Source: Naegleria gruberi (taxonomy: Eukaryota). Taken from it: a stretch of 64,000 nucleotides of DNA. The position numbers and the translations under genes were made by a program. Under the pieces are notes generated by a model. The model was given only the letters and a program-made list of their open reading frames with translations, did no database searches and was not told where the DNA came from. The stretch is taken from NCBI GenBank assembly GCA_000004985.1, contig GG738913.1, one strand, 5' to 3'. Below are positions 1 through 36,313 of this stretch, one piece after another (position 1 is the stretch's first letter; each line of letters opens with the position of its first letter).

Positions 1-803
1 CAGAAATTTCAGATTTGGAAACAATCATGAGAAAACAAAGAAAATTAGCTGAAACAACAGAGCTTATTCATGTTGCTAGTTTAATCCATGATGATATTGT
101 AGATGATGCCGATACAAGAAGAGGAATTCCTGCCCTCAACAAAAATGTTGGAAATAAGGTTGCTGTTTTAGCTGGTGATTTCCTTCTCGGCAGAGCTTCC
201 ATAAATTTGGCTAGAATCGGAAATATTGAATCTATTGATTTAATTTCAACAGTTATTGAACATTTGGCTTATGGCGAAGTTTTGCAAATGGCCGGAAAAG
301 GAAAATTAGATTTTGATTATTATATGAAAACCATCTTCTTTAAAACTTCATCTCTCATTGCTAACAGTTGTAAGGCTTCAGCTGTTTTAAGTGGATCAAC
401 AAACCGTGAACTAATTGATGCAGCATATACTTTCGGAAAACACGTAGGAATTGCATACCAATTAACTGATGACAGTCTCGATTTCACACAATCACAAAAC
501 GACCTAGGAAAACCATCTCAAGGTGCTGACATGAAATTAGGTTTAACAACATGTCCAATTATTTTCGCTGCTCAAGCTTTCCCAGAACAAATGAAACCAA
601 TAATTGATAGAAAATTCTCAGGTGAAGGTGATATTGAAATGGCTAGAAACTTTGTTATTAAGAGTAACGCCGTTCAATCCACTAAAGATTTGGCTGATAC
701 ACACACGAGGATGGCTTACGATGCTGTTATGAAGTTTAAACCTTCACCAGTTCGATCTGTTTTACTTGAATTACTTTACAAGATTTCCTTGAGAAACAAG
801 TAA
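1..803 (+). CDS. Polyprenyl (solanesyl/decaprenyl) diphosphate synthase, 5'-truncated at the window edge
   Basis: The reading frame is open from nt 3, so the gene starts upstream of the window. The first Asp-rich motif is LIHDDIVDDADTRRG and the second is QLTDDSLDFT. The intervening block GKPSQGADMKLGLTTCPIIFA is typical of trans-prenyltransferases (Coq1/IspB family). The stop is TAA at 801-803. Confidence 0.75.
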   Translation, partial: EISDLETIMRKQRKLAETTELIHVASLIHDDIVDDADTRRGIPALNKNVGNKVAVLAGDFLLGRASINLARIGNIESIDLISTVIEHLAYGEVLQMAGKGKLDFDYYMKTIFFKTSSLIANSCKASAVLSGSTNRELIDAAYTFGKHVGIAYQLTDDSLDFTQSQNDLGKPSQGADMKLGLTTCPIIFAAQAFPEQMKPIIDRKFSGEGDIEMARNFVIKSNAVQSTKDLADTHTRMAYDAVMKFKPSPVRSVLLELLYKISLRNK

Positions 804-4705: not shown

Positions 4706-5767
4706 TTAAAAGCATTTTCTATGTACTATTGAAGGTCCAATTTCATCATACTCTTTGCATGAAATCCACATTGGTTCAAACGATGATAGAGAAGATAACA
4801 GGCTACCTCCAAGCCAAACTGAATATTTTCTAAATGGTGGAGCCTCAACATTGATTTTCACATTTGATGGAGCCAATGCACTTAACTCTTTTTCCACTCG
4901 TTCTGACAATCCTGTAAACATTGTTGTTCCACCTGCTAAGATTATATTTGAAAACATATCCTTTCTAACATCCATGTCACATTTTCTAATAGAATTGAAA
5001 ACCTGTTCATGAATCCCAGAATGTGAATCAAGATTGGGATTGAATAATTCCTCTGTGCATTTGAATCGTTCACATCCAATGTTAATCAAGCTTCCATCTG
5101 GTAATTCATAAGAAACATCAGTCACTGCCTTTTCATTTTCCTGATCAAAATCCAATGCAACATAGCAAATATTATGCTTCATATCTGTCATGACATCTGT
5201 TGGATGCTCTGCAAAATATGGTATTTTACATCCAGCAAATGCTTGAACCAAATATTCAGTAATTTCCCTTCCAGCAAAATTCCAACTTGAAATGGCATGT
5301 GTCAAGGCATATCCTTCATAGACAGGAACAGCTCTCGACACACTCTCTCCCAAATCCAAAACAATTCCACTTGTCTTGCCAGATGCAAACAACGCCAACA
5401 CTCCTTGCATTGCCACATAAAAACTTGATATATTAAACTCCTCAAACACGATCTGTGTCATCCTCTCTCTATTACACTTTGGTTCCCTCACTGCTTCACT
5501 CATCAAGATTGGATGTAATTCTGGCCTGCATCAAACTAGTTCCATATCAGACATGTTGGTAATGACACAATGTTCAATTGGATATTTCAATGTACAGATA
5601 CCTCTCTTAGCAATGGCTTCATCACCAACTATAGTGGTGCTTGTTGATTTCTTGTGGTGGCCAACTAGGGTTGGAAAGATTGATGTCGGAGTGTTGTCTT
5701 GTTCGTTTGCTATTCCTACTTTCATAGTACAAGATCCGTTATCAATTATTATAGCTGTTTTGGTCAT
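4706..5767 (-). CDS. Actin-family protein (divergent actin or Arp1-like) with an in-frame TGA at 5531-5533
   Basis: The N-terminal ORF ([12 protein letters not shown]...[31 protein letters not shown]) and the C-terminal ORF ([32 protein letters not shown]...[17 protein letters not shown]...[13 protein letters not shown]) are in the same frame. A single TGA separates them. It aligns with the conserved Trp of the actin DMEKIW motif. The ATG is at 5765-5767. Confidence 0.65.
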
Positions 5768-5994: not shown

Positions 5995-6940
5995 GTTGAG
6001 TGGAATTGTTTTTTGGCCACACGTGATGTGTTGGCTGTGTTCAAGGATTTTGAATCAGATTTTTGGTTTCAATGAATTAACATTTTCCAAATTTAGTACC
6101 TTTCAAAGTTTGTTAAAAATCGGTGAGTAGCTAACCCATGTTGTCTGCAATTGTTTCTAAATGGATTTTTGTGCCTTAATAAAATCAGAGTTGTTTCTTA
6201 AGAAGAAACATTTTTAGAATTAAATGTAAAGCAGGAATGAAGAAATAATTTTGTTTACCCCGATTATTTTCTGACCACCATACGCCCCTAAATAGATTTC
6301 TACCCCTCCTCACCACCTCAAACTGTAATGGGTCGACCAAATTCAATAAATGAATAATTGGCAAATTCATCTCCTTGCACCCTCTGAACAGTAATTCATT
6401 TGTATTAATTTTCTTCCTCTTCATCAACATATTCTCCATCTTCTTCCTCTTCTTCATCAACATCTTTAACATTTAATTTTTCCAATTTCTTCCTCATCTT
6501 CCACTTCATCATCATTATTTTCCGCATTTCCAGTTTGCACAATATATTCTGTTAATTTAGGCACACCATAATTTTCATATCGCCCCATTTCTTACGATTT
6601 AGCAGTGCTTTGTTTGTTACTGAGTCTCCAAAGTTGTGGGAATACCAGATTCTCTAGCAAGTTGAGTGGTGAATAAACCAATGTCAATGTTATTTGGGTG
6701 AACCGAACCTCCCATAGTTTTTTCATCATTTAATTGTTTTAAAAAATTTGTCACTCCTTACCATTATTAAGCATTTTTCATCATCACACCATCAAAAATG
6801 TTGAACACTCACTAGTAATGTTCTTCTACCTGGTTTTATGTAGAAACCATCTAAAATTCACAACAGAGAACATGATATAGTTGTTCTTGAAGAATATTTT
6901 CTAATAGTTTATTTTTCTGCTCGGATTACAATTAAAAAAA

Positions 6941-9142
6941 ATGTCTTCACTAGTTACGAGGGCACAACTGTTTAATCCTTCTAGTGTTTTTGTTTCATCA
7001 AATAATGAAGTTTATATTGCTGATTTTTGTAATCATAGAATTAGAAAAATATTAGAAAATGGAAATATTGTAACAATTGCAGGAAATGGAAATTATGGAT
7101 TTAGTGGTGATAATGGTCCTGCAACAAATGCACAATTTAATTATCCTTGTAGTGTTTTTGTTTCATCAAAGAATGAAGTTTATATTACTGATTATAGCAA
7201 TCATAGAATTAGAAAAATATTAGAAAATGGAAATATTATAACAATTGCTGGAAATGGAACTGTTGGATTCAGTGGTGATAATGGTCCTGCAACAAATGCA
7301 CAACTTTATAATCCTTCTAGTGTTTTTGTTTCATCAAATAATGAAGTTTATATTGCTGATTTTTGTAATCATAGAATTAGAAAAATATTAGAAAATGGAA
7401 ATATTGTAACAATTGCAGGAAATGGAAATTATGGATTTAGTGGTGATAATGGTCCTGCAACAAATGCACAATTTAATTATCCTTGTAGTGTTTTTGTTTC
7501 ATCAAAGAATGAAGTTTATATTACTGATTATAGCAATCATAGAATTAGAAAAATATTAGAAAATGGAAATATTATAACAATTGCTGGAAATGGAACTGTT
7601 GGATTCAGTGGTGATAATGGTCCTGCAACAAATGCACAACTTTATAATCCTTCTAGTGTTTTTGTTTCATCGAATAATGAAGTTTATTTTACTGATCAAC
7701 ATAATAACAGAATTAGAAAAATATTAGAAAATGGAAATATTATAACAATTGCTGGAAATGGAAATTATGGATTTAGTGGTGATAATGGTCCTGCAACAAA
7801 TGCACAATTGTATAATCCTAATAGTGTTTTTGTTTCATCAAATAATGAAGTTTATATTACTGATTAAAGTAATCAAAGAATTAGAAAAATATTGGAAAAT
7901 GGAAATATTGTAACAATTGCAGGAAATGGAACTGCTGGATTCAGTGGTGATTCACCTTTTAATATTATAATGTATCCTCATATTGGAAATAAGTTATTAA
8001 CTGGAAATAGTAGCTTGTACTCCAAAATAGAATATAATTTGAAAAAACATTCAAGAGATCAATTATTTGGATTTCAAATTTATGGATTCATTCCACTCAT
8101 TGAAAAAATTTCACCAAAATTTAGTAATATTTTGAAGAATGAAAAGATGCTTTGTTTGATGAGTTCATCACAACAAGAAATTATTCAAAAATTAATTGAT
8201 TCTTTGCTGTATGATAAGAACAAGGTAAAGTTTAGCAAAGAAGAAGTGTTGGATGTTTTATTCATTTTGGGTTTATTTAAGAATGGTGAATTTATTGATT
8301 TGAAAAGATCATTGACAAGTGAATTTGTGAACTCATTCACATTAGAAAATCTTACTTTCAAATGGGAAACAATTGAAAATTTACTCAAAACTTGCAATGA
8401 GGAATTTGGTATTCAAAATTACATTCTCGATCAATTGAATAACCATTGCATTGAATATGCTGCTGTTCAAATGCAAACCAAAGAAGGAAACACTTTATTA
8501 TCGACTCTTCCAATAATTATGAGAAATGCTACTGCCATATTTCCAAAAATGATCATTGCTCAACCAACTGCAATTAATATTGAGGAAACAATTGAAAATG
8601 AACCACAAACAATTGAATCATTATATGGTGATATGAAAACAAGTGATGTAAAAATCAAAATGGGACAAAACAAATACTTATATTGTCACAAAACTGTATT
8701 GAGTTCATCAAGTACATTGTTTAATGCATTATTTGACAGTGGATCTTGTTTCAGTGATTTGAGTGATGATGGAATATTCACACCTGACGAATCAGAAGAT
8801 TTGGAATTATTGGAAATTGTGATCAAATATTGTTATAGAATTTCAATTGACAAAATTGATGCTGTTAAAATTATTGGATTACTTGATATGGCAATGAAAC
8901 ATGAAATTCAATATCTAATCAATTATTGCAAGAATAACTTTACTCTATCCATTGATAATTACTTTGCTATGCTTGAAGTTTGTGAAAATTATTTTGATTT
9001 ACAACTATTTGAGCAATTTTTGAGAGAGATTCTCAAGTTTAGCATTGTCAACAGAAAACAACTCTTCATAGATCAAAATAGAATTTCCAAATTACCTGAA
9101 AAATTTTGGCAAGAAATCTTAAAGCTTTCACAGGACTTTTGA
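6941..9142 (+). CDS. NHL-repeat protein with a C-terminal BTB/POZ-containing region. An in-frame TAA sits at 7865-7867
   Basis: ORFs 6941..7867 and 7892..9142 are in the same frame and separated by one TAA. That codon lies inside an NHL repeat, where the paralogous repeats have TAT (Tyr). The downstream ORF has no ATG at its listed start; it is TTG. Six or more NHL-type repeats (NHRIRKILENGNI.TIAGNG..GFSGDNGPATNAQ) are followed by a BTB-like segment (VKIKMGQNKYLYCHKTVLSSSSTLFNALFD). Confidence 0.6.
6974..7981 (+). repeat. Tandem coding repeat. Two perfectly identical 336-bp units (6974-7309, 7310-7645) are followed by a diverged third unit
   Basis: Direct comparison of the nucleotide strings shows them identical. 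Each unit encodes two NHL-like repeats of about 56 aa. Confidence 0.9.
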
Positions 9143-9449
9143 GATTATTTTGAGATTGAGACATGAAAATAATTATAATAATTTATGTGATGCATTATCA
9201 TTGACCTTTTACTATTCGAGACGGGACTGTACTCTCTCTCCACCTCAATAAACAACAATACTTGGTAATGACTCAGCTTCCATTTTCTCTCAATGGTGCG
9301 TTTTGAATACAGAGGAAAAGACTAAAGTAATGACAAAAACTTTACATTCTTAAAGCTGTGAAGTAAAAATTGAATCAGAAGATGATGAAAAATTGACTTA
9401 TCCTCTCAAATAAACGAATGTCTCACTGTTATTTAAAATGGTATTTTAA

Positions 9450-10166
9450 TTACATAATTAAGCATTCTTGTTGGCTTTCTTCATTTTCATTGTTTCTTCT
9501 TCCTTGTTGTTGAACTTGTTGTTGTTGATTGGGAGGGTTATTAGTATTGGCAGCTACATACATGGCTCCTAAAGAAACTGCCCCAACAACAGCAAGTGCT
9601 CCCCAGAATGAGCCATTTCCTTGGTTAGTAGTAGTGCTTGTTACAGGTACTTCTGAATCCAATCTTGTTGTTTGCTCAAAATGTTCTGGTTCAATGAGAT
9701 CCTTTGTGTGATCTCTGAGCTCTCCATTTTGGCCATTGTAAACTCCAAATGGTTTGATTGTACCAATCGAATCTGTATCCCATTCAAGAATTTCAGTCAA
9801 ATAGTGAGAGGCATTGTTGCCACATCTCGTAACTTGTTCTCTGAGTTTTTGAAGTTTTCGTTTTTGATTTCTCCAAACCACATCTGGTGAATAGTTAATA
9901 TGCTTTGCTTCCAATGCCAAAATATCAATCTTTCCATCATTACGAAATTTAGCAAGAATTGCATCTCCTTTGTAATGAGAAGGAAGATGATATTCGTATG
10001 CAATTAAATAGTCGTATTTACTTAAAAGAAATGCTTCACATGCTTCTTTTAAGACCTTTGCTTCCTCTCTAACATCAGCTCTTTCATGATGCTCTACATC
10101 ATAATCAAGTTTTTCAGTGCATGTAAAGTGTTGTTGTCTCAAAGTTTGTCTAATAGAGGAGGACAT
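9450..10166 (-). CDS. Hypothetical tail-anchored protein with a PD-(D/E)xK-like motif
   Basis: The 238-aa ORF has its ATG at 10164-10166. It contains GDAILAKFRNDGKIDILALEAKH, which fits the D...(D/E)xK pattern. A C-terminal hydrophobic segment (FWGALAVVGAVSLGAMYVAA) is followed by a Q/N-rich tail. Confidence 0.4.
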   Translation of the reverse strand: MSSSIRQTLRQQHFTCTEKLDYDVEHHERADVREEAKVLKEACEAFLLSKYDYLIAYEYHLPSHYKGDAILAKFRNDGKIDILALEAKHINYSPDVVWRNQKRKLQKLREQVTRCGNNASHYLTEILEWDTDSIGTIKPFGVYNGQNGELRDHTKDLIEPEHFEQTTRLDSEVPVTSTTTNQGNGSFWGALAVVGAVSLGAMYVAANTNNPPNQQQQVQQQGRRNNENEESQQECLIM

Positions 10167-10546
10167 TTTTTAATAGTTTGGCGAATCTCAACGTTTGTTT
10201 GGTTCCAAGCTAGTTTACAGGTTAGATGGGAATTCCCAGCGTTGTTAAATTACTTGGTGCATAAAGTGTTTGCTATTGATCTGTTAAAAACAAACAAACA
10301 AAAACGACGCATGTGATACACCAACACACATGTTTGAGTCAACAAGACAAGTATACAACATTTGTATCTCCCATGACATGCGTGGTCACATGTAACATTC
10401 ATGGTACTAACTCGCCATACTCTTCTTACTCATTTTCAATATCAGATTGGAGTAGCTTGGTGTATCTAATGTAAAATGGAAGAATATTAGGAAGAATTTG
10501 AAGGAATAGAAATTACCAACCACACATGTCATACATATTACATGTT

Positions 10547-13368
10547 TTATTCATATCTCTTAATTTCCAGAGATTCAGTATTATATTGTTTAGTTTTGCT
10601 TTTGCCACCACTTTTACTTGCTGATGATGAAGATGGTGGTGGTGTGAATTTATCGTACTCAATGAAACACTTCTCATTCCTGTAAATCTCAATAATCTTC
10701 TTCCAATGTTCATCAATACTCAATAACTCTGCATTGCCTACAATAACCATGAGTGATATGGCTCTGGAAATGGCCACGTTCAATCTCTTTGGATTTTGTA
10801 GGAAACCAAGCTTGAATTTGGAATCTTGTTCCAATCCTTCAGTGCTACTCGATCTGACAGTTGTCAAAAGGATGACTCTTCTTTCTTGACCTTGGAATTG
10901 TTCAGTAGTTCCAACAAAGATTTTTTTGTACAATGGATTGGTGGATTTTCTCAACAATTTTTTGATTTCTTCTGCTTGTTTTCTGTATGGAGTAATGATG
11001 CCAATTTCATGTTCAGGATTATATTGGTTGTGTTTGCTGTTGAAAACCAATCCAGACTTTACGATTTCATCCAATTTATCCATTAAAACTTGAATTTCTT
11101 TGGAATTATACCATGAAGGTGAGTCATTATCACGTTTCTCATCACCCTTAACGTGGTAAAACAACATTGGAACTTGTGGATTCTCCAAAATTGGATTGTT
11201 AATGAAGAGATTTGCTGAATTAATATCAGTACATGATGAAATTAAGGAATTATTATAAAATACAGAGCTATAGACTTGCATTATTTTAGGGTGAGCTCTG
11301 TATGATTGTTGTAATTGAGTAATAGAACAGCAATTATCTCCTAACTTGACTAAATGTTCCAAGAGGGATTCGCCCAATCCATATTCAACAGCAAGAGGAG
11401 ATCTTACAATTGGTCCAAGTTGTTTTGGATCACCTGCCAACACAACAACTGTATTGTCACCTTTCAAAGAGAATGGTATTAATGCTTCTGGAATAACAGA
11501 TTCACCAGATTCATCAATAATAATATGAGAAAAGTGTCCTGGCTTAACTCCCTTACTGTACAAATAACCAGATGAAGTGCATGTTGAAATAATTACATCA
11601 TATTTGGCGATTTCATGTAATTCTGGAATTTCAAAACCTTGATCAAGTTTGTTTGAGAATTTAATAATCCACCTCTTTGTGAATGTATTTGGATCTCTTT
11701 GAACACTATTCATTCTCATCATTTTCACTAATGGATTCAAGTTACTATCGACCAGTCTTTCCACAATAATATCAGCTGCTTGATTGGAAGGAGCACATAT
11801 GAGAATCTTGTGATTTGGATCTTGTTTCATAATTTCCAAGATACATTGAGATACTACGAATGTTTTACCTGTTCCAGGAGGTCCAAAAACTATTTTGATA
11901 TTAGTAAGAATCTAGCACCAGAAAATACATTCCTGAAATAAGGAGAGTCACACATTGAGAGAGCTCTATGCATCAACTTGATTGGAGTTCTTGAGAATCT
12001 GAAACTGATATCAACCTTTTCATACTTTTCTACATTTTCATGGAATGAAACAACTACATGATCTAAATTGACATAATGAATGAAACCTTTGAAAAGAACA
12101 GTTCTTGCCTTTGTTTCGTGATGAGGTCTACATAAAATCAAATCTCCTCTCAATACGGATGGTCTCTTTTCAGCAAGACCTGCACAATAGACTTTGTACA
12201 ATCTAGAATTAGGAGCATGTCTGTATCTTTCCTCATAGCTTTCCAATTTAATTCCTGACAAGTCGTATTGCTTAATGTCATAAATCATTTGGGCCTCTTC
12301 AACATGTAATAATGTTCCTAATAAATTATGAGTGTATGTGTACATGTCATTAGTAGAAACATGTTCATTTGGTTCCTGTTGAGTAACCTTTGTTCCTTGT
12401 TTCAATTCACCAGACAATTCATTCTTGAGTTGAGCATTCATTGCATGTTTTTCCAATATTTTCTTATTATCCAAAACATTCTTAATCTTATCAGGAAGTT
12501 CATAAGCTTCCAATGGTTTTTGGAATTTCATTCCATCCCCCAAAGGTCTCTTTCCAGATTTGACATTATTAAATCTCCAAACATGTCTATATTTTCTCTT
12601 CTTCAAATTTGGTAATTTGTAAATTCTGTCTGGATCATAATGAAGAGTGAAAATCTTCTTTACAGAACCACCCTCAAGAGTTTCCTTTTCAAGGGTCTGA
12701 TAGAAAAATAAAGTGGGATGTAAAATTTGATAAACCAACATTTGAGGACTCAATTGTGAATAATTCAACTTGAATCTTTTGTGAACCATTTTGAGAAGTT
12801 TCTTGGTATCCATCTTTCTTGGCACATCCAAAGTAGATGTGACAAAATGAATAATATCTCTCTTTCTATTCTCATCCAAAAGGAGACCATTCATACTTGT
12901 GCCATTATTATTATTATTATTATTATTGGACACAGATGGTGGTGGAGTTGATTCTGATTGTTGTGGAGTTGCTTGTTTCTTTGCTCTTTTCCTACGATTT
13001 GAATTTTTAGATGTTGTTTTACCTGTTGTGGTGGTGCCTGCAGAAGTCTGCTTGTGAGCAACATTTGATGATGCAGATGCATGTTGCACAACAACATTCA
13101 ATGCAGCTTTGAATGTTGTTGATGCATTAGCATTCACCATGCTCTTCTTAATATCGGCCTTCTTTTTACGAGTGCGCTTTGGCTGTGGAGGAGCCGTGTT
13201 GGCTAAATTTAAAGTAGTATCAGCCACCACTACATGTTGGTGATGGTCATCTGAAATAGTTGAAGTGTTATTTGCTGGTTTTCTTGTGCGTCTTGTTCTT
13301 CTTGTGCCTGCTTGTTGTGGGTAGTTGTTGTTTGGTGTTGGGTTGGGAGGTGGAATGGTGGTGGACAT
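10547..13368 (-). CDS. MOV10/Armitage/UPF1-like SF1 RNA helicase. The reading frame is broken by a 1-nt shift near 11850-11890
   Basis: The helicase core ORF has motif Ia (ILICAPSNQAADII), DExx (HIIIDESGE), VLAGDPKQLGPIV, IGIITPYRKQ and VGTTEQFQGQERRVILLTTVRS. Walker A (GPPGTGKT) is encoded just upstream of its listed start, in the same frame. That frame overlaps the end of the N-terminal ORF (...FSGARFLLISK*). One extra A in the run tcAAAAtag would fuse them into ...LLISKIVFGPPGTGKT.... The N-terminal part carries an NLS-like KRTRKKK and a poly-N run. Confidence 0.65.
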
Positions 13369-13613
13369 TTTTTTGGATTTGATTGGCGAAATGTTTCGAG
13401 AGTTATTTGTTTATGATTCTCTTGAATTCCCAACCTTTACCAAAATGGAAATCGCTATAAATAAATAGATTGGGAATAGTTTAAATTCAATAGAATGTAT
13501 AGCTTGAATCTTTGAGATTGCCATTATTTCTGGATCTTGTTTTAATGAAATGATCATGATTTTCATTTCTAGCGAATGAGGAAATTTTTTGAATGAAAAC
13601 GAAACATCTCGAA

Positions 13614-15131
13614 TCAACACGAGGATATGTGTTTCCAATTACTTTTGATTAATGTGTTGGAAAATGGCATAATAGATAGGATTCCATTAACATCAAATTC
13701 AAATCTGGTTTCTAATCTGTTGCTTGTAAGATCAATTCCAATATCAATAGTTGCAATTCCAATAAGCTCTCTAGATTCTGGTCTATCCCCTTCAAATATT
13801 TTAATTTGAAATGTTTTCCTTTCCATTATTGAATCTGAAATTAACAACTGAGACACCTTAATACATGGAATCGAAACCTCTGTAGGAAATATAGTTAACA
13901 TATTTCCTTCCATTTCACATGTAATTGGTCGACTGGTTGTGTCTATGATAAGGCATTCCTGTTCGAAACCTCCCAATATCCCTCCTTCAAATGCAACTCC
14001 AAATGCAACCTCGTATGGTAAAAGAGGTTTAGGATAGAGAGTTTTACCGAAATAGTTAGATATTAGCTCTTTTAGTTTTGGAATTTCACCTCCTCCACCA
14101 ACAAAAATCACATGATCAATCTCTTGCTTTGTAATTAATGATCTTGTGTGAACTCTTGTCACTAAATTCATGCATTTTCTAAAAAACTCAATATTCAATT
14201 CTTCAAAAAGTGATCTACTTATTGTAATCTCAAAATCATTTCCATCCATAAGAGATTCAAGACTGATTTTTGTTTCTAATTCATTCGAAAGTCTCTTCTT
14301 TGCTTCTTCACATGCCAAATTCAGTCTCCTCATTGAAATTGGATTTTCTTGTAAATGTTTTTTGAATGATTTGTAAAATTGTTCACAACAATAATTAACC
14401 AGACTTTCGTCCAATAATGATCCTCCAACATTAGAGAATCCTTCACTCGTTCTAGTCTCAAAAATGTCACTTTCTACAATCATTATCGATGCAGAACATC
14501 CACTCCTTCCCAAGTCAAATAGGAAAACCCTCCTCTCTCCATGTTCCTTCCAAAGATATTGGAAACAAGATGCAGAGGTGTCATGTATGAATCTTGCAAT
14601 TTTTAGGCCAGCATACTCGCCAGCTTTTTTCATTATAATTCTCTGACAATTCGAATAATAATTTGGAATTGACACAATAATCTCTGTAACTAAAGTATTC
14701 AAATATCTTTCAGCATCTTGCTTCAATTCTTTCAAAATCAATCCAATCATTTCAGATATCGATAATTCACCATTAATAACACCCAATCGAATAGTTCCAT
14801 CCTCCTTTCGAATAATTTTGAATGGCCATCTCCTCTCTTGTGAACTAAACTCATCGTCATCATGAAATGTTTTTCCAATTAATTTTTTAAAATCCCAGAA
14901 ACAACAATGAGGATTCACTAAACTATATTCTAAAGCCTCTTGTCCAATTAATATTTTACTTTCCGATACTGATGATGATGATGATTCATCTAGAAAGGCC
15001 AAACAAGTTGGAGTTTCGTATTTACCGAATTTATTGGGAATATATTCAATGTGATCTTTAATGTAAACGGCAGCCCTACAGTGTGATCCTCCAAAATCAA
15101 TTCCAACAATTCCATTTTGCAATTTTTTCAT
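13614..15131 (-). CDS. Atypical Hsp70-family ATPase
   Basis: GIVGIDFGGSHCRAAVY is the phosphate-1 motif. DLGRSGCSASIMIV is phosphate-2. VIFVGGGGEIPKLKELISNYFG is the adenosine motif. The first ATG is at 15129-15131. The stop is TGA. Confidence 0.7.
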   Translation of the reverse strand: MKKLQNGIVGIDFGGSHCRAAVYIKDHIEYIPNKFGKYETPTCLAFLDESSSSSVSESKILIGQEALEYSLVNPHCCFWDFKKLIGKTFHDDDEFSSQERRWPFKIIRKEDGTIRLGVINGELSISEMIGLILKELKQDAERYLNTLVTEIIVSIPNYYSNCQRIIMKKAGEYAGLKIARFIHDTSASCFQYLWKEHGERRVFLFDLGRSGCSASIMIVESDIFETRTSEGFSNVGGSLLDESLVNYCCEQFYKSFKKHLQENPISMRRLNLACEEAKKRLSNELETKISLESLMDGNDFEITISRSLFEELNIEFFRKCMNLVTRVHTRSLITKQEIDHVIFVGGGGEIPKLKELISNYFGKTLYPKPLLPYEVAFGVAFEGGILGGFEQECLIIDTTSRPITCEMEGNMLTIFPTEVSIPCIKVSQLLISDSIMERKTFQIKIFEGDRPESRELIGIATIDIGIDLTSNRLETRFEFDVNGILSIMPFSNTLIKSNWKHISSC

Positions 15132-25257: not shown

Positions 25258-25887
25258 TTAATGTCTACGTCCTCCTGATTTCTTCTTTACTGTTTGGAAA
25301 CCATCTTCATCAATTTCTGGTTCTTCCTTAACATGAACATGGTCATGGTTATGATCAGCCATGTTAGCATCTTCATCATCACTATCTACGTGATTAACTC
25401 TTATTTTCTCTTCCTTTTCTTCATGTAATTTCTTTTCAACAAATTCTGCTTCTGATGGCATTTCAAATGGTGTTCCTTGTTTTTCCGAAAGTAATCTAAT
25501 GACTTCAGTAAAATTATTATTGAGAATTTGTTTGAAAAGTATGAGAATATGTTTAGAAACAATTTTAATTGATCCATCAAGAATATCAATACCTAAATCT
25601 TCTTCCAAAACATCATTCATATATTGTACAACTTCATCAACTTCTAATTGGTCACCATCATTAGAAATCCACTCTTTAATATTATTTTGGAATTCATCCA
25701 ATAAATCATCGGTATCACCTCCCGAAGCAGAATGTTGTCTAGCAAGAGTGAGAGCAGTCCATTTGCTAAAGATTGTATTAACGGCTTTACAGAAGTAAAA
25801 ATATTGATACAGAGAATAATTATCGTTATGTTTTGGTGATTTAATATCAGAAGAAGCGGACGAAGATGTTGGTGTGTTAGTTTGCAT
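25258..25887 (-). CDS. Hypothetical acidic protein
   Basis: A 209-aa ORF with an ATG start and an acidic, His-rich C-terminus. No recognisable family. Confidence 0.4.
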   Translation of the reverse strand: MQTNTPTSSSASSDIKSPKHNDNYSLYQYFYFCKAVNTIFSKWTALTLARQHSASGGDTDDLLDEFQNNIKEWISNDGDQLEVDEVVQYMNDVLEEDLGIDILDGSIKIVSKHILILFKQILNNNFTEVIRLLSEKQGTPFEMPSEAEFVEKKLHEEKEEKIRVNHVDSDDEDANMADHNHDHVHVKEEPEIDEDGFQTVKKKSGGRRH

Positions 25888-25935
25888 TTTTTTTTCAAAG
25901 ATTCGAAATAAATGTGGAATTTGGTTTAATTGTTT

Positions 25936-27471
25936 TTATTGGTTTTGCATTGCTTTGAGTTTGCTCATTTGAAGAATCATTCGATTGGATTCGTAACATT
26001 CTCTAACTAATTGTTGTAATTCAATTGATTCTCTTCTTTCTTGCTGTTTTTCTTCAGAGGTTTTCAGTGCTTCTGTTCTGAAATCTAAAACAACATTGAC
26101 ATAATTTCTTAAATGGACTGGTGCCTTATTTTCTCTATCAACAGAAAAATGTACCACATCTGCTGTTGGAGTCAAAACTGAAAATGAAAAATTATTTTTC
26201 TCTTTTTCAGACATATCAATAATTGTTCTATCCTCAAATTTAGCTCGTATTCTACCATCGGCAAATAATTGAAAATGACCAATTGATTTGTAATGAGATT
26301 CTTTAAGTATTTGAGATGAATAATTCTTCTTTGTTTGAACCTCCAAATTTGGTTTGTAAACGACCATCTTTTGAGAATTCTCGAAAAGGTGTTTCATTAT
26401 TTGGAAAAGCTCCTTGCTAGGTAATGATTTTGTAATCTCTACACCTTTCCTGCTTTCAGAGAAGCTGTATATTTCTGGTGGAAGTATATTGACATCAAAC
26501 ACCTTTGACAATGGCCTCGAATAACTAGGATCATAAGACCACAGTTTGAAAAAACTGAAAATATCTGAGAGAAAATATAATTCCTCTTCGTTCAATATTA
26601 ATTCCACAACTTCTTTCAAGTATTTTAACGTCATAAATTGAGTATACTCTATTAGAATCGTATTATTTTTCTCCAAACAACATGATAAATATCCTATACA
26701 ACTTTGATTTTGTCGATGGGTGGCAATACTCTTGTAGACACTCGATAGAGTGACATTATTAACTCCCTTTTTCACTTCTCCAGTAAGTCTTGATGTCTTT
26801 TTAGTTTGTGGAAGTGTCATTGTGTAAATAATTTCCACATTTACTGGCTTTTCATCCTTATCGTATCTTTGCTTGTAGTAATAGAGTGCAATAGCAACTG
26901 CATATTTCCATCTATCAGGATAACAATGTTTAGAAAATAATTGATCTTGCTTAATGTACAAAAATTTAGATTGGTTATTTCTATAAATTATTTAGCTTTT
27001 CTAAAATGATTGATTCCACATACCTCGAATGAACTACTGCTGGGAATGATATTTTAAAAAGTACTCCGTTTGGGGCCACTGTTATTGAAACAAAATCAGG
27101 GTAGGTGAAACTCTTCAACGTTATACTTCCATCTTTATGATAGGTAACCAATTCTGAATCGAATTTCCACTGAACAATTGACATATTTACAGACGACTCG
27201 AATAAATTAGCAGAAAAATACTCCTTCGCAAGAATTTGCTCGCATAAATAAGGTTCCTCAACGTGACAATTATAAAACAGTAATAATTGATTCAATTTCA
27301 TTTTGATTTGTTCCTTTCCCTTATTTTGAGCAAATGCTGTAATTTGAAATTCAAACTTGGGAGGCTTCCTCTCCAATATAACATCAAGATCCCTATCCGA
27401 TCCTTCCGATAATCCTTCACTGTAGTAATAAAATATTGTTCCTTCCTCTGCTAATAAAATTGCTGTTTGAT
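25936..27471 (-). CDS. Hypothetical multi-exon gene, 5'-incomplete because it runs into the assembly gap
   Basis: Proposed exons are 27471(gap)..27024 and 26980..25936, joined by a 43-nt intron at 26981..27023 (donor GTATGT, acceptor TTTATAG). This gives ...FPAVVHSR/NNQSKFLYIKQDQLF.... The upstream ORF is open right up to the N run. The C-terminal region contains segments faintly resembling a polo box (HFQLFADGRIRAKFEDRTIIDM). Confidence 0.4.
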
Positions 27472-27724
27472 NNNNNNNNNNNNNNNNNNNNNNNNNNNNN
27501 NNNNNNNNNNNNNNNNNNNNNNNNNNNNNNNNNNNNNNNNNNNNNNNNNNNNNNNNNNNNNNNNNNNNNNNNNNNNNNNNNNNNNNNNNNNNNNNNNNNN
27601 NNNNNNNNNNNNNNNNNNNNNNNNNNNNNNNNNNNNNNNNNNNNNNNNNNNNNNNNNNNNNNNNNNNNNNNNNNNNNNNNNNNNNNNNNNNNNNNNNNNN
27701 NNNNNNNNNNNNNNNNNNNNNNNN
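27472..27724. other. Assembly gap (253 N)
   Basis: A run of N characters. ORF-track entries with poly-X translations across it are artifacts. Confidence 1.
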
Positions 27725-32944: not shown

Positions 32945-33079
32945 TTTTTTTAAATGAAATTTATTTTTAATCTATTGTACACAAACAGACAAAAAATTGC
33001 CTCTTCACATCACCACCAATAGTTTTAGCTCAACGTTCTAATCAACCATCAATCCTCTTCAAAAAAAATACTTGAAATC

Positions 33080-34632
33080 ATGTCAGCTCAACCTCACGAA
33101 GATATTATTATAGATCAGAGTCTTGAAGACCTTCTTCCAATTGTTATTACAGAATATGATGCCATCTCTAGAAAGGGTATACAATCATCTTTCCTAGCTA
33201 GAGATTTGGTTAGAATGTACGATAAAATTACCTTCTACAAGCACAATAATACGGAATTAGACTTGACTCTATACAATAATATAATTTCAACTTCAAGTGC
33301 TACTTCTAATAATACTGATGGAGATGCTAATAATAATAGTAAAGAAGGTACACAAATTAATGATGAAAATAATCATACTGACAACAAGCCTAATAAGAAT
33401 GACGATGAAGCTGTTGTTGAAATTATTGAAGGAAATCAACAACAATCGGTCAATACTACTTCAACTAATGGAACATCTTCTGAAAATCTTGTTGCAGAAA
33501 CTCCTAATATTGTGGCCGAATCTTCAAATAATTCGAAAGTCAAAACACCAACCGATGATGTGTCAACAAGTGTTGCAACCACACCATCCAAAGAAAAATC
33601 AATTCCTATTTCATCTCCTTCTGGTGTATCATCTCCAACAAAGAAAGATGTTGAAATTATTGTGTTACCATCTAATCAACAAGTAGAAAAGATTGACCAC
33701 CAAAGAATTACAGATTTAGTATATAATGAATTTGAAAAGGATGAATTTACACACTTCCCTCACAATAATTCAAGTCTAGATGATCCAGATAGAAGTGATC
33801 AACTCTTTGTAGATATTTTGAACTTACTTTCCAAATCATTTGCTTTCAAACAATCGGTTCCATGTCAGCCAATTTTGAGTTTGAAAGAATTCAAGGAAAT
33901 TGTTGTGAGCAAGGCAGTTCAAAATTATGTGAGCAGTCTTTTAGAAGGAAAATTCGGTGATAATCATCCAGTTGTCAAATATTTAACACTTGTAGATCAG
34001 GCATTCGTAGTTTCCCTTTTGGGACACTTTGCCGAAGCTCTATTCTTTACCAAAACTCCAATTAGATTTAAGGATATTAGAGGAACTTGGAGAATTGATG
34101 TCAGACTGTATCAAGATAAGATTTCAATGGTTCACAGAAGGTATGTTTCTCACTGATTGATGATTAATTTATTAATTATAACCATAGAACTGAACAAATG
34201 TTAAAACCTCTAGGAAATACCATGCTAAAGAACTTGTTCCAATTCAGTTGGCAAGTTGAAATTATCTATGATTCTTATTCATTGGAACAAATTGGCGCTG
34301 TGCATGTATCGTTATTGGAAGTAGATTGGGCCTCATATGATGAAAGTTTAGGAATGAATCAAAAACAAAAAGATGAAATGCAAAAATTATTCATTAGAAT
34401 GTTTTCAAAGAGTAAGGCAGACAGCAAGTTACCTGTTAAAATAAGCATGGTCGATATTTCTCTAAAACATGTTCGATTACTAGTTAAGGAATTGAGGCAA
34501 CAATCTAAAAAACTTGTCAAACCAAATTCGGAAACCTCCTCAGATAACAAAAGCTGGTTCTCTAGCATTTTCACTAGTCCAGAGTCAGAGGATGATCCTT
34601 TCACTTTCGTATCCAGCAGTAAGAAGAAATAA
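33080..34632 (+). CDS. Hypothetical protein, 2 exons, with an N/S/T-rich low-complexity N-terminal half
   Basis: Exons are 33080..34140 and 34188..34632. The 47-nt intron at 34141..34187 (GTATGT...ACCATAG) joins ...ISMVHRR to TEQMLKPLGNTMLK in frame. Confidence 0.5.
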
Positions 34633-34735
34633 ATTCTCTAAGATACCTAATTAATTTAAGCAACAAGTAGAATACTGGGTGAAAAAATACAAAATTTAAT
34701 TATAAAAAAAAATTTAAACGTTTATTAATCGTATG

Positions 34736-34975
34736 AACCCGACGGGTTCGTCTTGATGATATTACGAATATTAAATAATAAATTCTTTCTTGTTGGGATT
34801 GCTTTGTTCATTTCTTGTAACTCTGTGGACACAAATACTTGGCTTGAACACCCTATGCTGGAACCCCGGGTAGTATAGGGTACGGTGACTTAACCCGACG
34901 TAAGTATTGCGGCAACACACTGTGGTCTCAGGGTCAACAGTGTAGTTACTGGGTGGTACGACATTTTTTTTGAGA
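34736..34975 (+). ncRNA. Candidate structured ncRNA, possibly Pol III-transcribed, class unknown
   Basis: A roughly 50%-GC island sits in a background of about 30% GC. It holds the perfect hairpin gaacccGACgggttc and a repeated acccgacg motif. It ends in a T8 run at 34964-34971. An A9 run at 34709-34717 would act as a terminator for the opposite strand. Confidence 0.2.
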
Positions 34976-34992
34976 CGAAATTATAAAAAAAA

Positions 34993-36054
34993 ATGACAGA
35001 CAAGGCATCTATGGAAGAAATTTTCGGCTCTGATTTTGAAGAGGAGTCTGAAGAAGAGCAACAACAACAACAACAAAACGAGGAAATACAATCATCATCT
35101 GATAATGAAGTAGAGGAATTTACACACAGAAGAGTAACTAGATCATCCGAACATCAAAAAATTGCTGAAAAGGAAAGATTAGAAGAAGAACAACGAAAAT
35201 TGGAGGACCAAATGCTTACATCACAAGCTGAACATTACGATTCTTTATTATATAAATATGATAGTGATGGTGACGATGAATCAAAGCAAGTCTTGGAAGT
35301 TAAACATAGTGAGAGACCAACCAAAGATAGTTTAGATCTCTTCTTCCTCCGTACTCCTATACAATTTAATACTGATGAAAAGGAATTTACAGAGGAAAGT
35401 TCACTTCCAAAGAATGATTTGTATACTATTCGTTGGAAAAAGAATGAGGAAACTGGAGAAATTGAAAGTAATACTCGTGTTGTACAATATGAAGATGGAT
35501 CATACCAAGTTTTTGTTGGTAATGAAGTTATCTTGAATTTGGAAGCTAAGAAATATACTAATTATAACAATTTACATTTGTTTGAAAAGGTTAGCCCATT
35601 CTGTTATTATGGACATGGTATTTTCACACACAGACTCAACTCTAAAGCTACATCAACACAAACAAAAGGAAGAGACATTGCTCTCAAACTTACCAAAGGA
35701 ACAACAACAACCAAGATAAAGAAGACAGTTCTGACATCAAAGAGACCTGAAACTGAGGAAACTAAGAAGGTTATGGAAGAAGCACAAAGTTTAAAGAAGA
35801 AGCAACAAAAGAAACAACAAAAGTATCAAAATACATTGACATTGGACAATGCCTCTCTGGAAGATGCTGGATCATCCTCCGATGAAGAAGGAAATGTCAG
35901 AAAGATTAAGAGAAATACTCTAAGAAAGCCAAAGAGATCCTCGTATGAAGATGAAGAAGAAAGTGCTGATAGTGCTAGTACTGGTAGTGACGAAGAAAGT
36001 GCCGATAGTTATTCAAGTGATGACAGTTCAAGAGCATCAAAGAAGAGAAGATAG
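34993..36054 (+). CDS. LEO1: Paf1-complex subunit Leo1 homolog
   Basis: The conserved Leo1 core is YTIRWKKNEETGEIESNTRVVQYEDGSYQVFVGNEVILNLEAKKY...NLHLF. It is flanked by acidic and Ser-rich termini. Confidence 0.6.
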   Translation: MTDKASMEEIFGSDFEEESEEEQQQQQQNEEIQSSSDNEVEEFTHRRVTRSSEHQKIAEKERLEEEQRKLEDQMLTSQAEHYDSLLYKYDSDGDDESKQVLEVKHSERPTKDSLDLFFLRTPIQFNTDEKEFTEESSLPKNDLYTIRWKKNEETGEIESNTRVVQYEDGSYQVFVGNEVILNLEAKKYTNYNNLHLFEKVSPFCYYGHGIFTHRLNSKATSTQTKGRDIALKLTKGTTTTKIKKTVLTSKRPETEETKKVMEEAQSLKKKQQKKQQKYQNTLTLDNASLEDAGSSSDEEGNVRKIKRNTLRKPKRSSYEDEEESADSASTGSDEESADSYSSDDSSRASKKRR

Positions 36055-36313
36055 ACATTCATGATCGTCGCTAAATAGGAATGATGATGATGAATAAATA
36101 ATTTATTAAATAGTAATCAATTCATCAGCAATTTTAATATTTAAAAAAAATTCAAGAAAGCTGATTGGACAATATAACCACCTTTCCGATTACTATAGTA
36201 TTTATTTGATCACAAAGTGATTGTCGTTATTATTGGAAGTGGATAAAGAAGTTTTTTAAGAATTTAATTTGTATATATAAATAATTGTAAATTTACATAT
36301 AGAAAACAATAGA

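Follow-up and report, generated by a model that had tools for sequence, protein, structure and literature searches.

The 64,000-nucleotide (nt) stretch of Naegleria gruberi DNA analyzed here (the window; contig GG738913.1 of assembly GCA_000004985.1, to which all coordinates refer) carries, between positions 6941 and 9142 of its plus strand, two adjacent open reading frames (ORFs), one encoding NHL repeats and the other a BTB domain, which raises the question of whether they are two genes or one gene broken by a premature stop codon. Public annotation already splits the locus, listing two unrelated "predicted proteins": the upstream ORF of 308 amino acids (aa) exactly matches NAEGRDRAFT_53386 (XP_002670610.1; EFC37866.1; D2VZ16), and the downstream one, read from the ATG at 7970, is NAEGRDRAFT_74322 (XP_002670611.1; EFC37867.1; D2VZ17), with 390 aa and 100% identity. 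The first-pass annotation of the window had taken both for the halves of a single NHL-BTB gene separated by an in-frame TAA. We regard it as essentially certain that a single gene is interrupted here by one canonical stop; the pair of public gene models most likely arose as an artefact of its being split.

Conceptual translation of 6941–9142 yielded a single frame of 734 codons with exactly one internal stop, the TAA at 7865–7867 (codon 309; ...VYITD-stop-SNQRIRKILENGNIVTIAGNG...), ahead of the terminal TGA at 9140–9142. The upstream ORF (6941..7867) starts with ATG and ends at the TAA after 308 aa; the downstream ORF (7868/7892..9142; TGA stop) has the same frame, as had been claimed. The position at which the latter had been listed to start, 7892, is indeed not an ATG but a TTG, the product of a bacterial ORF rule, and the first in-frame ATG follows at 7970. 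3′ of the TAA, 424 sense codons are open in a sequence of only 30% GC; taken together with the alignment of a paralog across the stop in one high-scoring segment pair (HSP; see below), this means that the shared frame is not a matter of chance. Neither a second stop nor a frameshift was found elsewhere in the 2.2-kb frame of 6941–9142.

That both halves belong to one gene is borne out by their Pfam domains and by paralogs that are colinear across the stop. The 308-aa ORF matches NHL (PF01436) in four stretches with 120.9 bits (cut-off 20; E 7.4e-36) and also TEN_NHL (PF25021) with 116.3 bits; the BTB domain lies in the downstream half (Table 1). By conceptual protein homology, the locus falls into a family of NHL+BTB proteins of ∼700–790 aa in N. 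gruberi. Intact paralogs are P0003 (XP_002676083.1; 733 aa), P0005 (XP_002668650.1; 728 aa), P0006 (699 aa), and P0031 (727 aa), further members containing both domains are P0074 (788 aa), P0081 (762 aa), and P0152 (710 aa), and a homolog, P0052 (C9374_010626), is present in Naegleria lovaniensis. Relatives of the size predicted by the first-pass annotation for the full-length protein (∼733 aa) thus exist in the same genome, P0003 having exactly this length. The conceptual translation can be aligned colinearly with 13 family members, from the N-terminal MSSL.TRAQL to the C-terminal ..SQDF. The nearest copy, P0002 (XP_002668792.1), which is encoded on a 23,652-bp scaffold, was recovered by tblastn as one HSP over 6941..8980, that is, crossing the stop. 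The 680 columns of this HSP are 95% identical, and the BTB half taken alone reaches 99%; P0003 is 81% identical over 100% of the query. Like the intact Naegleria paralogs (P0003, P0005, P0002, and P0052), to which it is 80–95% identical overall, the locus encodes six 56-aa blades, a linker, a helical domain, a BTB domain, and both termini, and its colinearity with the family extends from MSSL..AQL to ..SQDF. It differs from them in carrying TAA at the position of a sense codon, its frame therefore being interrupted, and from P0002 also in the order of its blade units.

The consequence of the stop for the protein was read from structural models. In that of P0003 (733 aa; predicted local distance difference test score [pLDDT] 81), six four-stranded blades extend to residue 325, followed by a disordered linker (residues 337–381), a helical domain (380–537), the BTB domain (569–665), and C-terminal helices (673–732). 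The stop corresponds to residue 307, which the model places between strand 2 (301–306) and strand 3 (311–315) of blade 6. The P0003 propeller matches solved six-bladed NHL domains, namely those of NHLRC2 (6g7w; Foldseek E 1e-23, TMt 0.84), teneurin, and TRIM71. Six blades are present in the conceptual read-through protein and in the intact paralogs, but the encoded ORF breaks off after strand 2 of blade 6 and thus does not encode a closed six-blade ring; judging from the model, the 308-aa product would comprise five and a half blades, would be unable to close the propeller, and would lack the BTB domain. The 34 codons between the TAA and ATG 7970 align with the last blade of all paralogs, and the ATG itself encodes an internal linker Met, for which paralogs have Met, Thr, or Lys.

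Table 1. Features of the interrupted NHL-BTB locus and its blade array, in window coordinates.
Feature	Position	Strand	Remarks
5′ ORF	6941..7864	+	308 codons; NHL blades 1–5 plus strands 1–2 of blade 6; Pfam NHL; exact match to XP_002670610.1
In-frame TAA, followed by A	7865..7867	+	Between strands 2 and 3 of blade 6; equivalent to P0003 residue 307
34 sense codons (SNQRIRKILENGNIVTIAGNGTAGFSGDSPFNII)	7868..7969	+	Strands 3–4 of blade 6 and start of linker; in no annotated gene model
390-aa ORF, NAEGRDRAFT_74322	7970..9142	+	Includes TGA 9140–9142; 100% identity to XP_002670611.1
Helical middle domain (∼170 aa)	8045..8554	+	Helices 26–195 of the 390-aa model (P0136), pLDDT mostly 80–95; no Pfam family, no PDB fold match
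BTB/POZ domain	8636..8938	+	PF00651, 40.1 bits (cut-off 20.5)
C-terminal helical extension after BTB	8960..9130	+	Helices 331–387 of the 390-aa model; may resemble 3-box/partial BACK; 160–190 columns align with the BTB-plus-3-box/BACK regions of SPOP and KLHL11
Tandem array of six 168-nt (56-aa) NHL blade units	6962..7951	+	Period 168, 5.9 copies, in coding frame
Two near-identical 336-nt double units	6962–7297 and 7298–7633	+	Unit 2 and unit 4 100% identical; unit 1 vs unit 3 98.8%

The TAA sits in the sixth unit of the tandem blade array, and the repeat motif runs on across it, just as the first-pass annotation had described. Copies of the array at a period of 336 nt match at 95%, and the double units may stem either from recent internal duplication or conversion, or from an assembly effect. 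Within unit 6 the stop is codon 22, and the homologous column reads, from unit 1 to unit 6, TTT, TAT, TTT, TAT, CAA, and TAA. Of the codons formerly assigned to this column, TAT is correct, whereas AGC and CAT belong to the next codon along. Near-identity is limited to units 1–4; as unit 6 is only 81–84% identical to the other units, the stop site appears to be fairly unique within the array. The concern that reads could map ambiguously in identical repeats consequently carries less weight than had been supposed. The AGT and CAA codons flanking the stop are unique to this unit.

At the position of the stop, P0002 has Gln and other relatives have Tyr, Leu, Thr, Ser, or Phe; a sense codon in close relatives has thus given way to a stop, and, as the residues in this column differ from member to member, it is a variable surface position in the family. 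P0002 reads D-Q-S-N-Q-R where the locus reads D-stop-S-N-Q-R, a D-x-S-N-Q-R context that is otherwise unique. Because the nearest copy has Gln in this context, the ancestral codon was most likely CAA (Gln), possibly TAT (Tyr), as far as can be judged from a protein sequence and assuming the usual AT-rich codon choice for the Gln of P0002. TAT to TAA (T to A) and CAA to TAA (a C-to-T transition) each take one step. The TAT-to-TAA path proposed at first was therefore not established, the Gln of P0002 making CAA to TAA at least as likely, and a TAT/CAA hybrid is also possible.

A hybrid codon would shift the origin of the stop from point mutation to the concerted evolution of the array. Unequal crossover or conversion between a TAT-bearing blade unit and the CAA-bearing last unit could place the junction inside the codon (TA/T with CA/A, the slash marking the junction). 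In both this locus and P0002 the array has six units, but their order is 1-2-1-2-3-6 here and 1-2-3-4-6-6 in P0002. The 5′ part of unit 6 (LYNP..VSSNNEVYITD) resembles generic units and unit 4 of P0002 (..VYITD-Y-SNHR), and its 3′ part (SNQR...TAGFSGDSPFNII) is of the last-unit type. The last unit in P0002 and P0003, which represents the ancestral type, reads LNRP.SVFV-SNNEVYI.D, with one Ser fewer; compared with it, unit 6 is mosaic in its 5′ portion, LYNP and VSS being generic-like and the N being as in the last unit of P0002. Blade shuffling that keeps six units and reorders them, the sixth being a composite (1-2-1-2-3-4/6) here, could have brought this about. As a source of the stop in place of point mutation, we consider such a junction rather improbable. 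Such a TAT/CAA junction may have formed in the genome, through unequal crossover or conversion, or else computationally, in a chimeric consensus.

The computational variant leads over to the notion that the TAA is a base or consensus error and the real gene intact, with 733 aa. Reads of TAT- and CAA-bearing units or paralogs might have been piled together, with the column consensus yielding T-A-A, a codon present in no real molecule. Both codons do occur in the stop column of other units of the array, P0002 has Gln in its last two units and Tyr in unit 4, and the 5′ part of unit 6 is the mosaic of generic and last-unit types described above. Near-identical copies of the region moreover number at least three in the genome, the sister model P0150 shows three odd skips within its NHL array that fit assembly trouble in repeats, the ORF is otherwise flawless over 2.2 kb, and the window contains an assembly gap, that is, it is draft sequence. 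On the other hand, unit 6 is, at only 81–84% identity, too far from the other units for local collapse to be expected, the AGT and CAA codons on either side of the stop occur in no other unit, and disrupted or partial copies are so common in the family that a real nonsense change is unremarkable. The NEG-M assembly presumably rests on multi-fold Sanger coverage, with which single-base consensus errors would be rare, and this was likewise counted against an error. On balance, an artefact is unlikely, though far from negligible, and it is the main rival of a genuine stop.

The explanation to which we give preference, as probable though by no means assured, is a recent and genuine nonsense change, in which case this member of a fast-turnover NHL-helical-BTB family would be a young pseudogene or null allele. 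One sense codon in blade 6 would have become TAA in this family member, so that translation from ATG 6941 would end after 308 residues and the mRNA would bear a false 3′-untranslated region of ∼1.3 kb. The 390-aa ORF would be left with neither a start nor a promoter of its own: ATG 7970 codes for an ordinary linker Met, and reinitiation after a 308-codon ORF would be needed. It is the combination of a product unable to close its propeller with a downstream ORF lacking start and promoter that makes a young pseudogene or null allele most likely. The inactivation would be young because the 2.2 kb contain no second lesion and because, of 337 residues in the BTB half, only three (N143K, A197T, and Q198E) distinguish it from the sister copies, the same three in both comparisons. 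Nonsense pseudogenes in expanded families likewise show a single premature stop in an otherwise conserved coding sequence, next to intact paralogs and other fragmentary members; at this locus, by contrast, neither a further lesion nor a measurable loosening of constraint has come to light, and in this respect a heterozygous null allele or a sequence error would be equally possible.

Several points weigh against a genuine nonsense change. Apart from the TAA, the ORF is perfect, as it would also be if a functional gene had been given a sequencing or consensus error, and the base call at 7865–7867 comes from the draft reference sequence alone. The divergence of the sister copies is too low for a test of relaxed constraint (three aa in the BTB half, and seven of the eight DNA differences from an independent contig within a 37-nt patch), and the N. 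gruberi-like contigs found in a metagenome assembly (see below) end at 8594, 730 nt short of the stop. The alternative set up by the first-pass annotation, error or allele versus pseudogene, was thus the right frame for the question; the pseudogene or null allele is here given more weight than error, as the more probable of the two.

Could both halves instead be made and used, the locus being a case of functional gene fission into a 308-aa NHL fragment and a 390-aa helical-BTB protein translated from ATG 7970? The downstream ORF is undamaged throughout and terminates at the stop that is normal for the family. Its model (pLDDT 76, from a 12-sequence alignment) comprises the helical domain, the BTB domain, and the C-terminal helices as a self-contained unit. 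The helical-BTB module itself is modular, combining with other N-terminal domains such as ankyrin repeats, and BTB-only relatives are annotated, namely P0138 (392 aa, same scaffold) and P0137. However, P0138 lacks ∼35 BTB residues and P0137 is a fragment at the end of a contig, so that both look degenerate or partial rather than representing a BTB-only class. The break, moreover, lies inside a blade and not between domains, leaving two orphan strands on each side, and the 34 conserved codons at 7868–7969 would go untranslated. The ATG at 7970 codes for an ordinary linker residue that is Thr or Lys in some paralogs, and there is no intergenic space for a promoter. Neither half had an exact or 90% cluster match in the ENA or Logan assemblies, whereas several other window genes do, which is at most a weak sign of low representation. 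Fission is thus decidedly improbable.

Bypass of the stop, be it by readthrough, a reassigned TAA, or a short intron, would give rise to a near-full-length protein. The sense frame goes on perfectly past the stop, 17 in-frame GT..AG pairs span it (e.g., 7810–7869, 60 nt), and annotators placed similar short "introns" in the sister model P0150. Yet the stop is not conserved, P0002 having a sense codon. A good 5′ splice site is missing from all 17 candidate introns, any of which would take out strands 1–2 of blade 6, a sequence that is plainly coding in units 1–5 and all paralogs; a stop-spanning intron was accordingly rejected. A ciliate-type code (TAA for Gln) had come to mind because the sequence is AT-rich and the neighboring actin-like gene contains another in-frame stop. 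It was discarded, and the standard code retained, because TAA is the main terminator in the window (30 of 43 long ORFs, with all three stops in use) and long conserved ORFs (Sec23 and MetE) are uninterrupted. Among 35 genuine terminators in the window, TAA-A is also the most frequent context (18 cases), so the stop has a strong terminator context. The 120 nt downstream of the stop fold no better than shuffled sequences (z = −0.71), which speaks against a stimulatory structure; no Rfam element was detected in 6000–10500 and no tRNA gene in the window. Given the TAA-A context, the lack of a downstream structure and of an Rfam element, and the lack of conservation, programmed readthrough was rejected. 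Taken together, bypass is so improbable that it can nearly be discounted.

A genuine nonsense change is set in a genomic region of which related copies exist. Nine of ten window ORFs exactly match N. gruberi NEG-M proteins of one 236,320-bp scaffold, including Sec23 and MetE. The NHL-BTB gene and its neighbor, which encodes 238 aa (9450–10166, minus strand), have close copies on two other scaffolds, one of 23,652 bp (with P0002 and P0124) and one of 189,881 bp (with P0150 and P0125). P0124 is colinear with window positions 14633–14211, 13212–12478, and 10163–9453, at 94–97% aa identity. Both sister scaffolds carry gene models colinear, at 94–99% aa identity, with the whole segment from ∼6900 to 14650, which comprises the NHL-BTB gene, the 238-aa gene, a MOV10-like N-terminus, and an Hsp70-like fragment. 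At least 6.9–14.6 kb of the window thus exists in the assembly as about three diverged copies that differ from one another in a mosaic fashion, which points to a segmental duplication or to divergent haplotigs.

The annotated family members are themselves irregular: in N. gruberi, roughly every second model is truncated, fused, or gapped (P0002, P0150, P0092, P0138, P0151, and P0001). That of P0002 stops abruptly at ..AMLEVI. P0150 skips three blade pieces, two of which extend to ..HNQRIRKIL, across the homologous stop site, and its C-terminus (CENFLNAIFERDSQV) lies in a shifted frame, corresponding to the +2 frame of the window sequence. For comparison, intact members contain six RKIL and six TIAG motifs. 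Whether the irregular sister models reflect copies that are decaying or repeats that are hard to assemble and model, probably both apply.

Independent sequence came from an ENA metagenome assembly (ERZ929261; run ERR1078381, PRJEB11402), which contains N. gruberi-like contigs 97–99.7% identical to the window. Contig L003 is 96.8% identical to 8594–10331 and encodes the intact C-terminal 182 aa of the BTB half, with the same stop. Over 549 coding nt it differs from the locus at eight positions, seven of them clustered in the 37-nt patch 8598–8634, where it matches the P0005/P0006 variant; this patch could be either a conversion patch or a chimera at the contig end. Contig L001 is 99.0–99.7% identical to 32980–36212 and has 175 nt where the window has ∼320 nt (34660–34978). 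A run of 253 N at 27472–27724 marks an assembly gap in the window, in keeping with its draft status.

Other same-frame split ORF pairs that had been flagged in the window mostly proved to lie in different frames or to be separate genes, and only the actin-like gene beside the NHL-BTB locus (4706–5767, minus strand; Pfam Actin, E 3.4e-86) shares the pattern. It has an in-frame TGA at 5531–5533, and ∼10 codons of the conserved WHHTFYNELRVA segment are gone, the sequence reading DMELV-stop-CRPELHP; no catalogued protein exactly matches either ORF piece. This is probably another gene that has been disrupted. A MOV10/UPF1-like helicase is split into ORFs 11890–13368 and 10547–11839 (minus strand) in different frames, which a 29-nt GT..AG segment (11890–11918, minus strand; containing TTACTAAT) would join in frame as ..NVFS/VFGPPGTGKT.. 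(slash, junction), making it a candidate for a very short intron. The ORFs 25936–26991 and 25258–25935 (minus strand) share a frame with one TAA between them (25936–25938) and look like two separate genes, the second starting at its own ATG 16 codons after the TAA.

As to what the intact protein may do, its architecture offers some hints. A phmmer search of the whole protein library with the 390-aa half returned 91 representatives, 25 of them at E ≤ 1e-10, most having NHL N-termini and a few having ankyrin repeats; in P0165 and P0176 the helical-BTB module follows ankyrin repeats and not NHL. The ∼170-aa helical domain together with BTB thus appears to behave as a portable module. The best PDB matches of the 390-aa model were KLHL11-Cul3, SPOP, KEAP1, and KBTBD2, over 160–190 columns and weak (E ≥ 3.9e-3; TMt 0.3–0.6), and the sequence matches of the KEAP1 and KBTBD2 BTB domains to that of the locus were marginal. 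With MATH-BTB (SPOP-type) CUL3 adaptors the family shares an N-terminal domain, in those adaptors a substrate-binding one, and a C-terminal BTB followed by ∼70 helical residues, as well as its lineage-specific expansion (PMC1257465). The two differ in that the partner is MATH there and an NHL propeller here, and in the ∼170-aa helical domain without a fold match. Judging from the models, the family may resemble CUL3 substrate adaptors in structure, with CUL3 binding as a candidate function only. Its propeller is like the six-bladed ones of NHLRC2, teneurin (NHL), and TRIM71/Brat/Thin in fold, blade number, and the Pfam families NHL and TEN_NHL, but it is joined to BTB, where those are joined to RING-B-box-coiled-coil or thioredoxin-like domains, and its 56-aa blades are unusually uniform, unlike those of NHLRC2/teneurin/TRIM71-type propellers. 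A literature search turned up no account of NHL-BTB proteins in Naegleria, nor any of this locus.

For the annotation of the genome, the above means that XP_002670610.1 (D2VZ16) and XP_002670611.1 (D2VZ17) are halves of one interrupted gene and not two genes. We recommend merging the two models and marking the result as a pseudogene or as low quality, or correcting it if the base is wrong. The sister models XP_002669261.1, XP_002668792.1, XP_002670676.1, and XP_002670527.1 look similarly compromised, and counts of Naegleria BTB and NHL proteins are therefore inflated or distorted. Every reading of the stop, be it nonsense, error, fission, or bypass, is ordinary when a family is expanded and rich in repeats and the protist genome is a draft, and correction of the annotation is the practical outcome.

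For the biology of Naegleria, the locus points to an expanded, fast-evolving family in which an NHL propeller is placed N-terminally of BTB. NHL does not occur among the BTB architectures surveyed by Stogios et al (2005; 0 occurrences in PMC1257465), who described the MATH-BTB family as prone to lineage-specific expansion. For adaptors that expand in this lineage-specific manner, the NHL-BTB expansion is unsurprising. If the stop did arise as a hybrid codon, blade shuffling would lead directly to gene death in this Naegleria-specific NHL-BTB family of candidate CUL3 adaptors.

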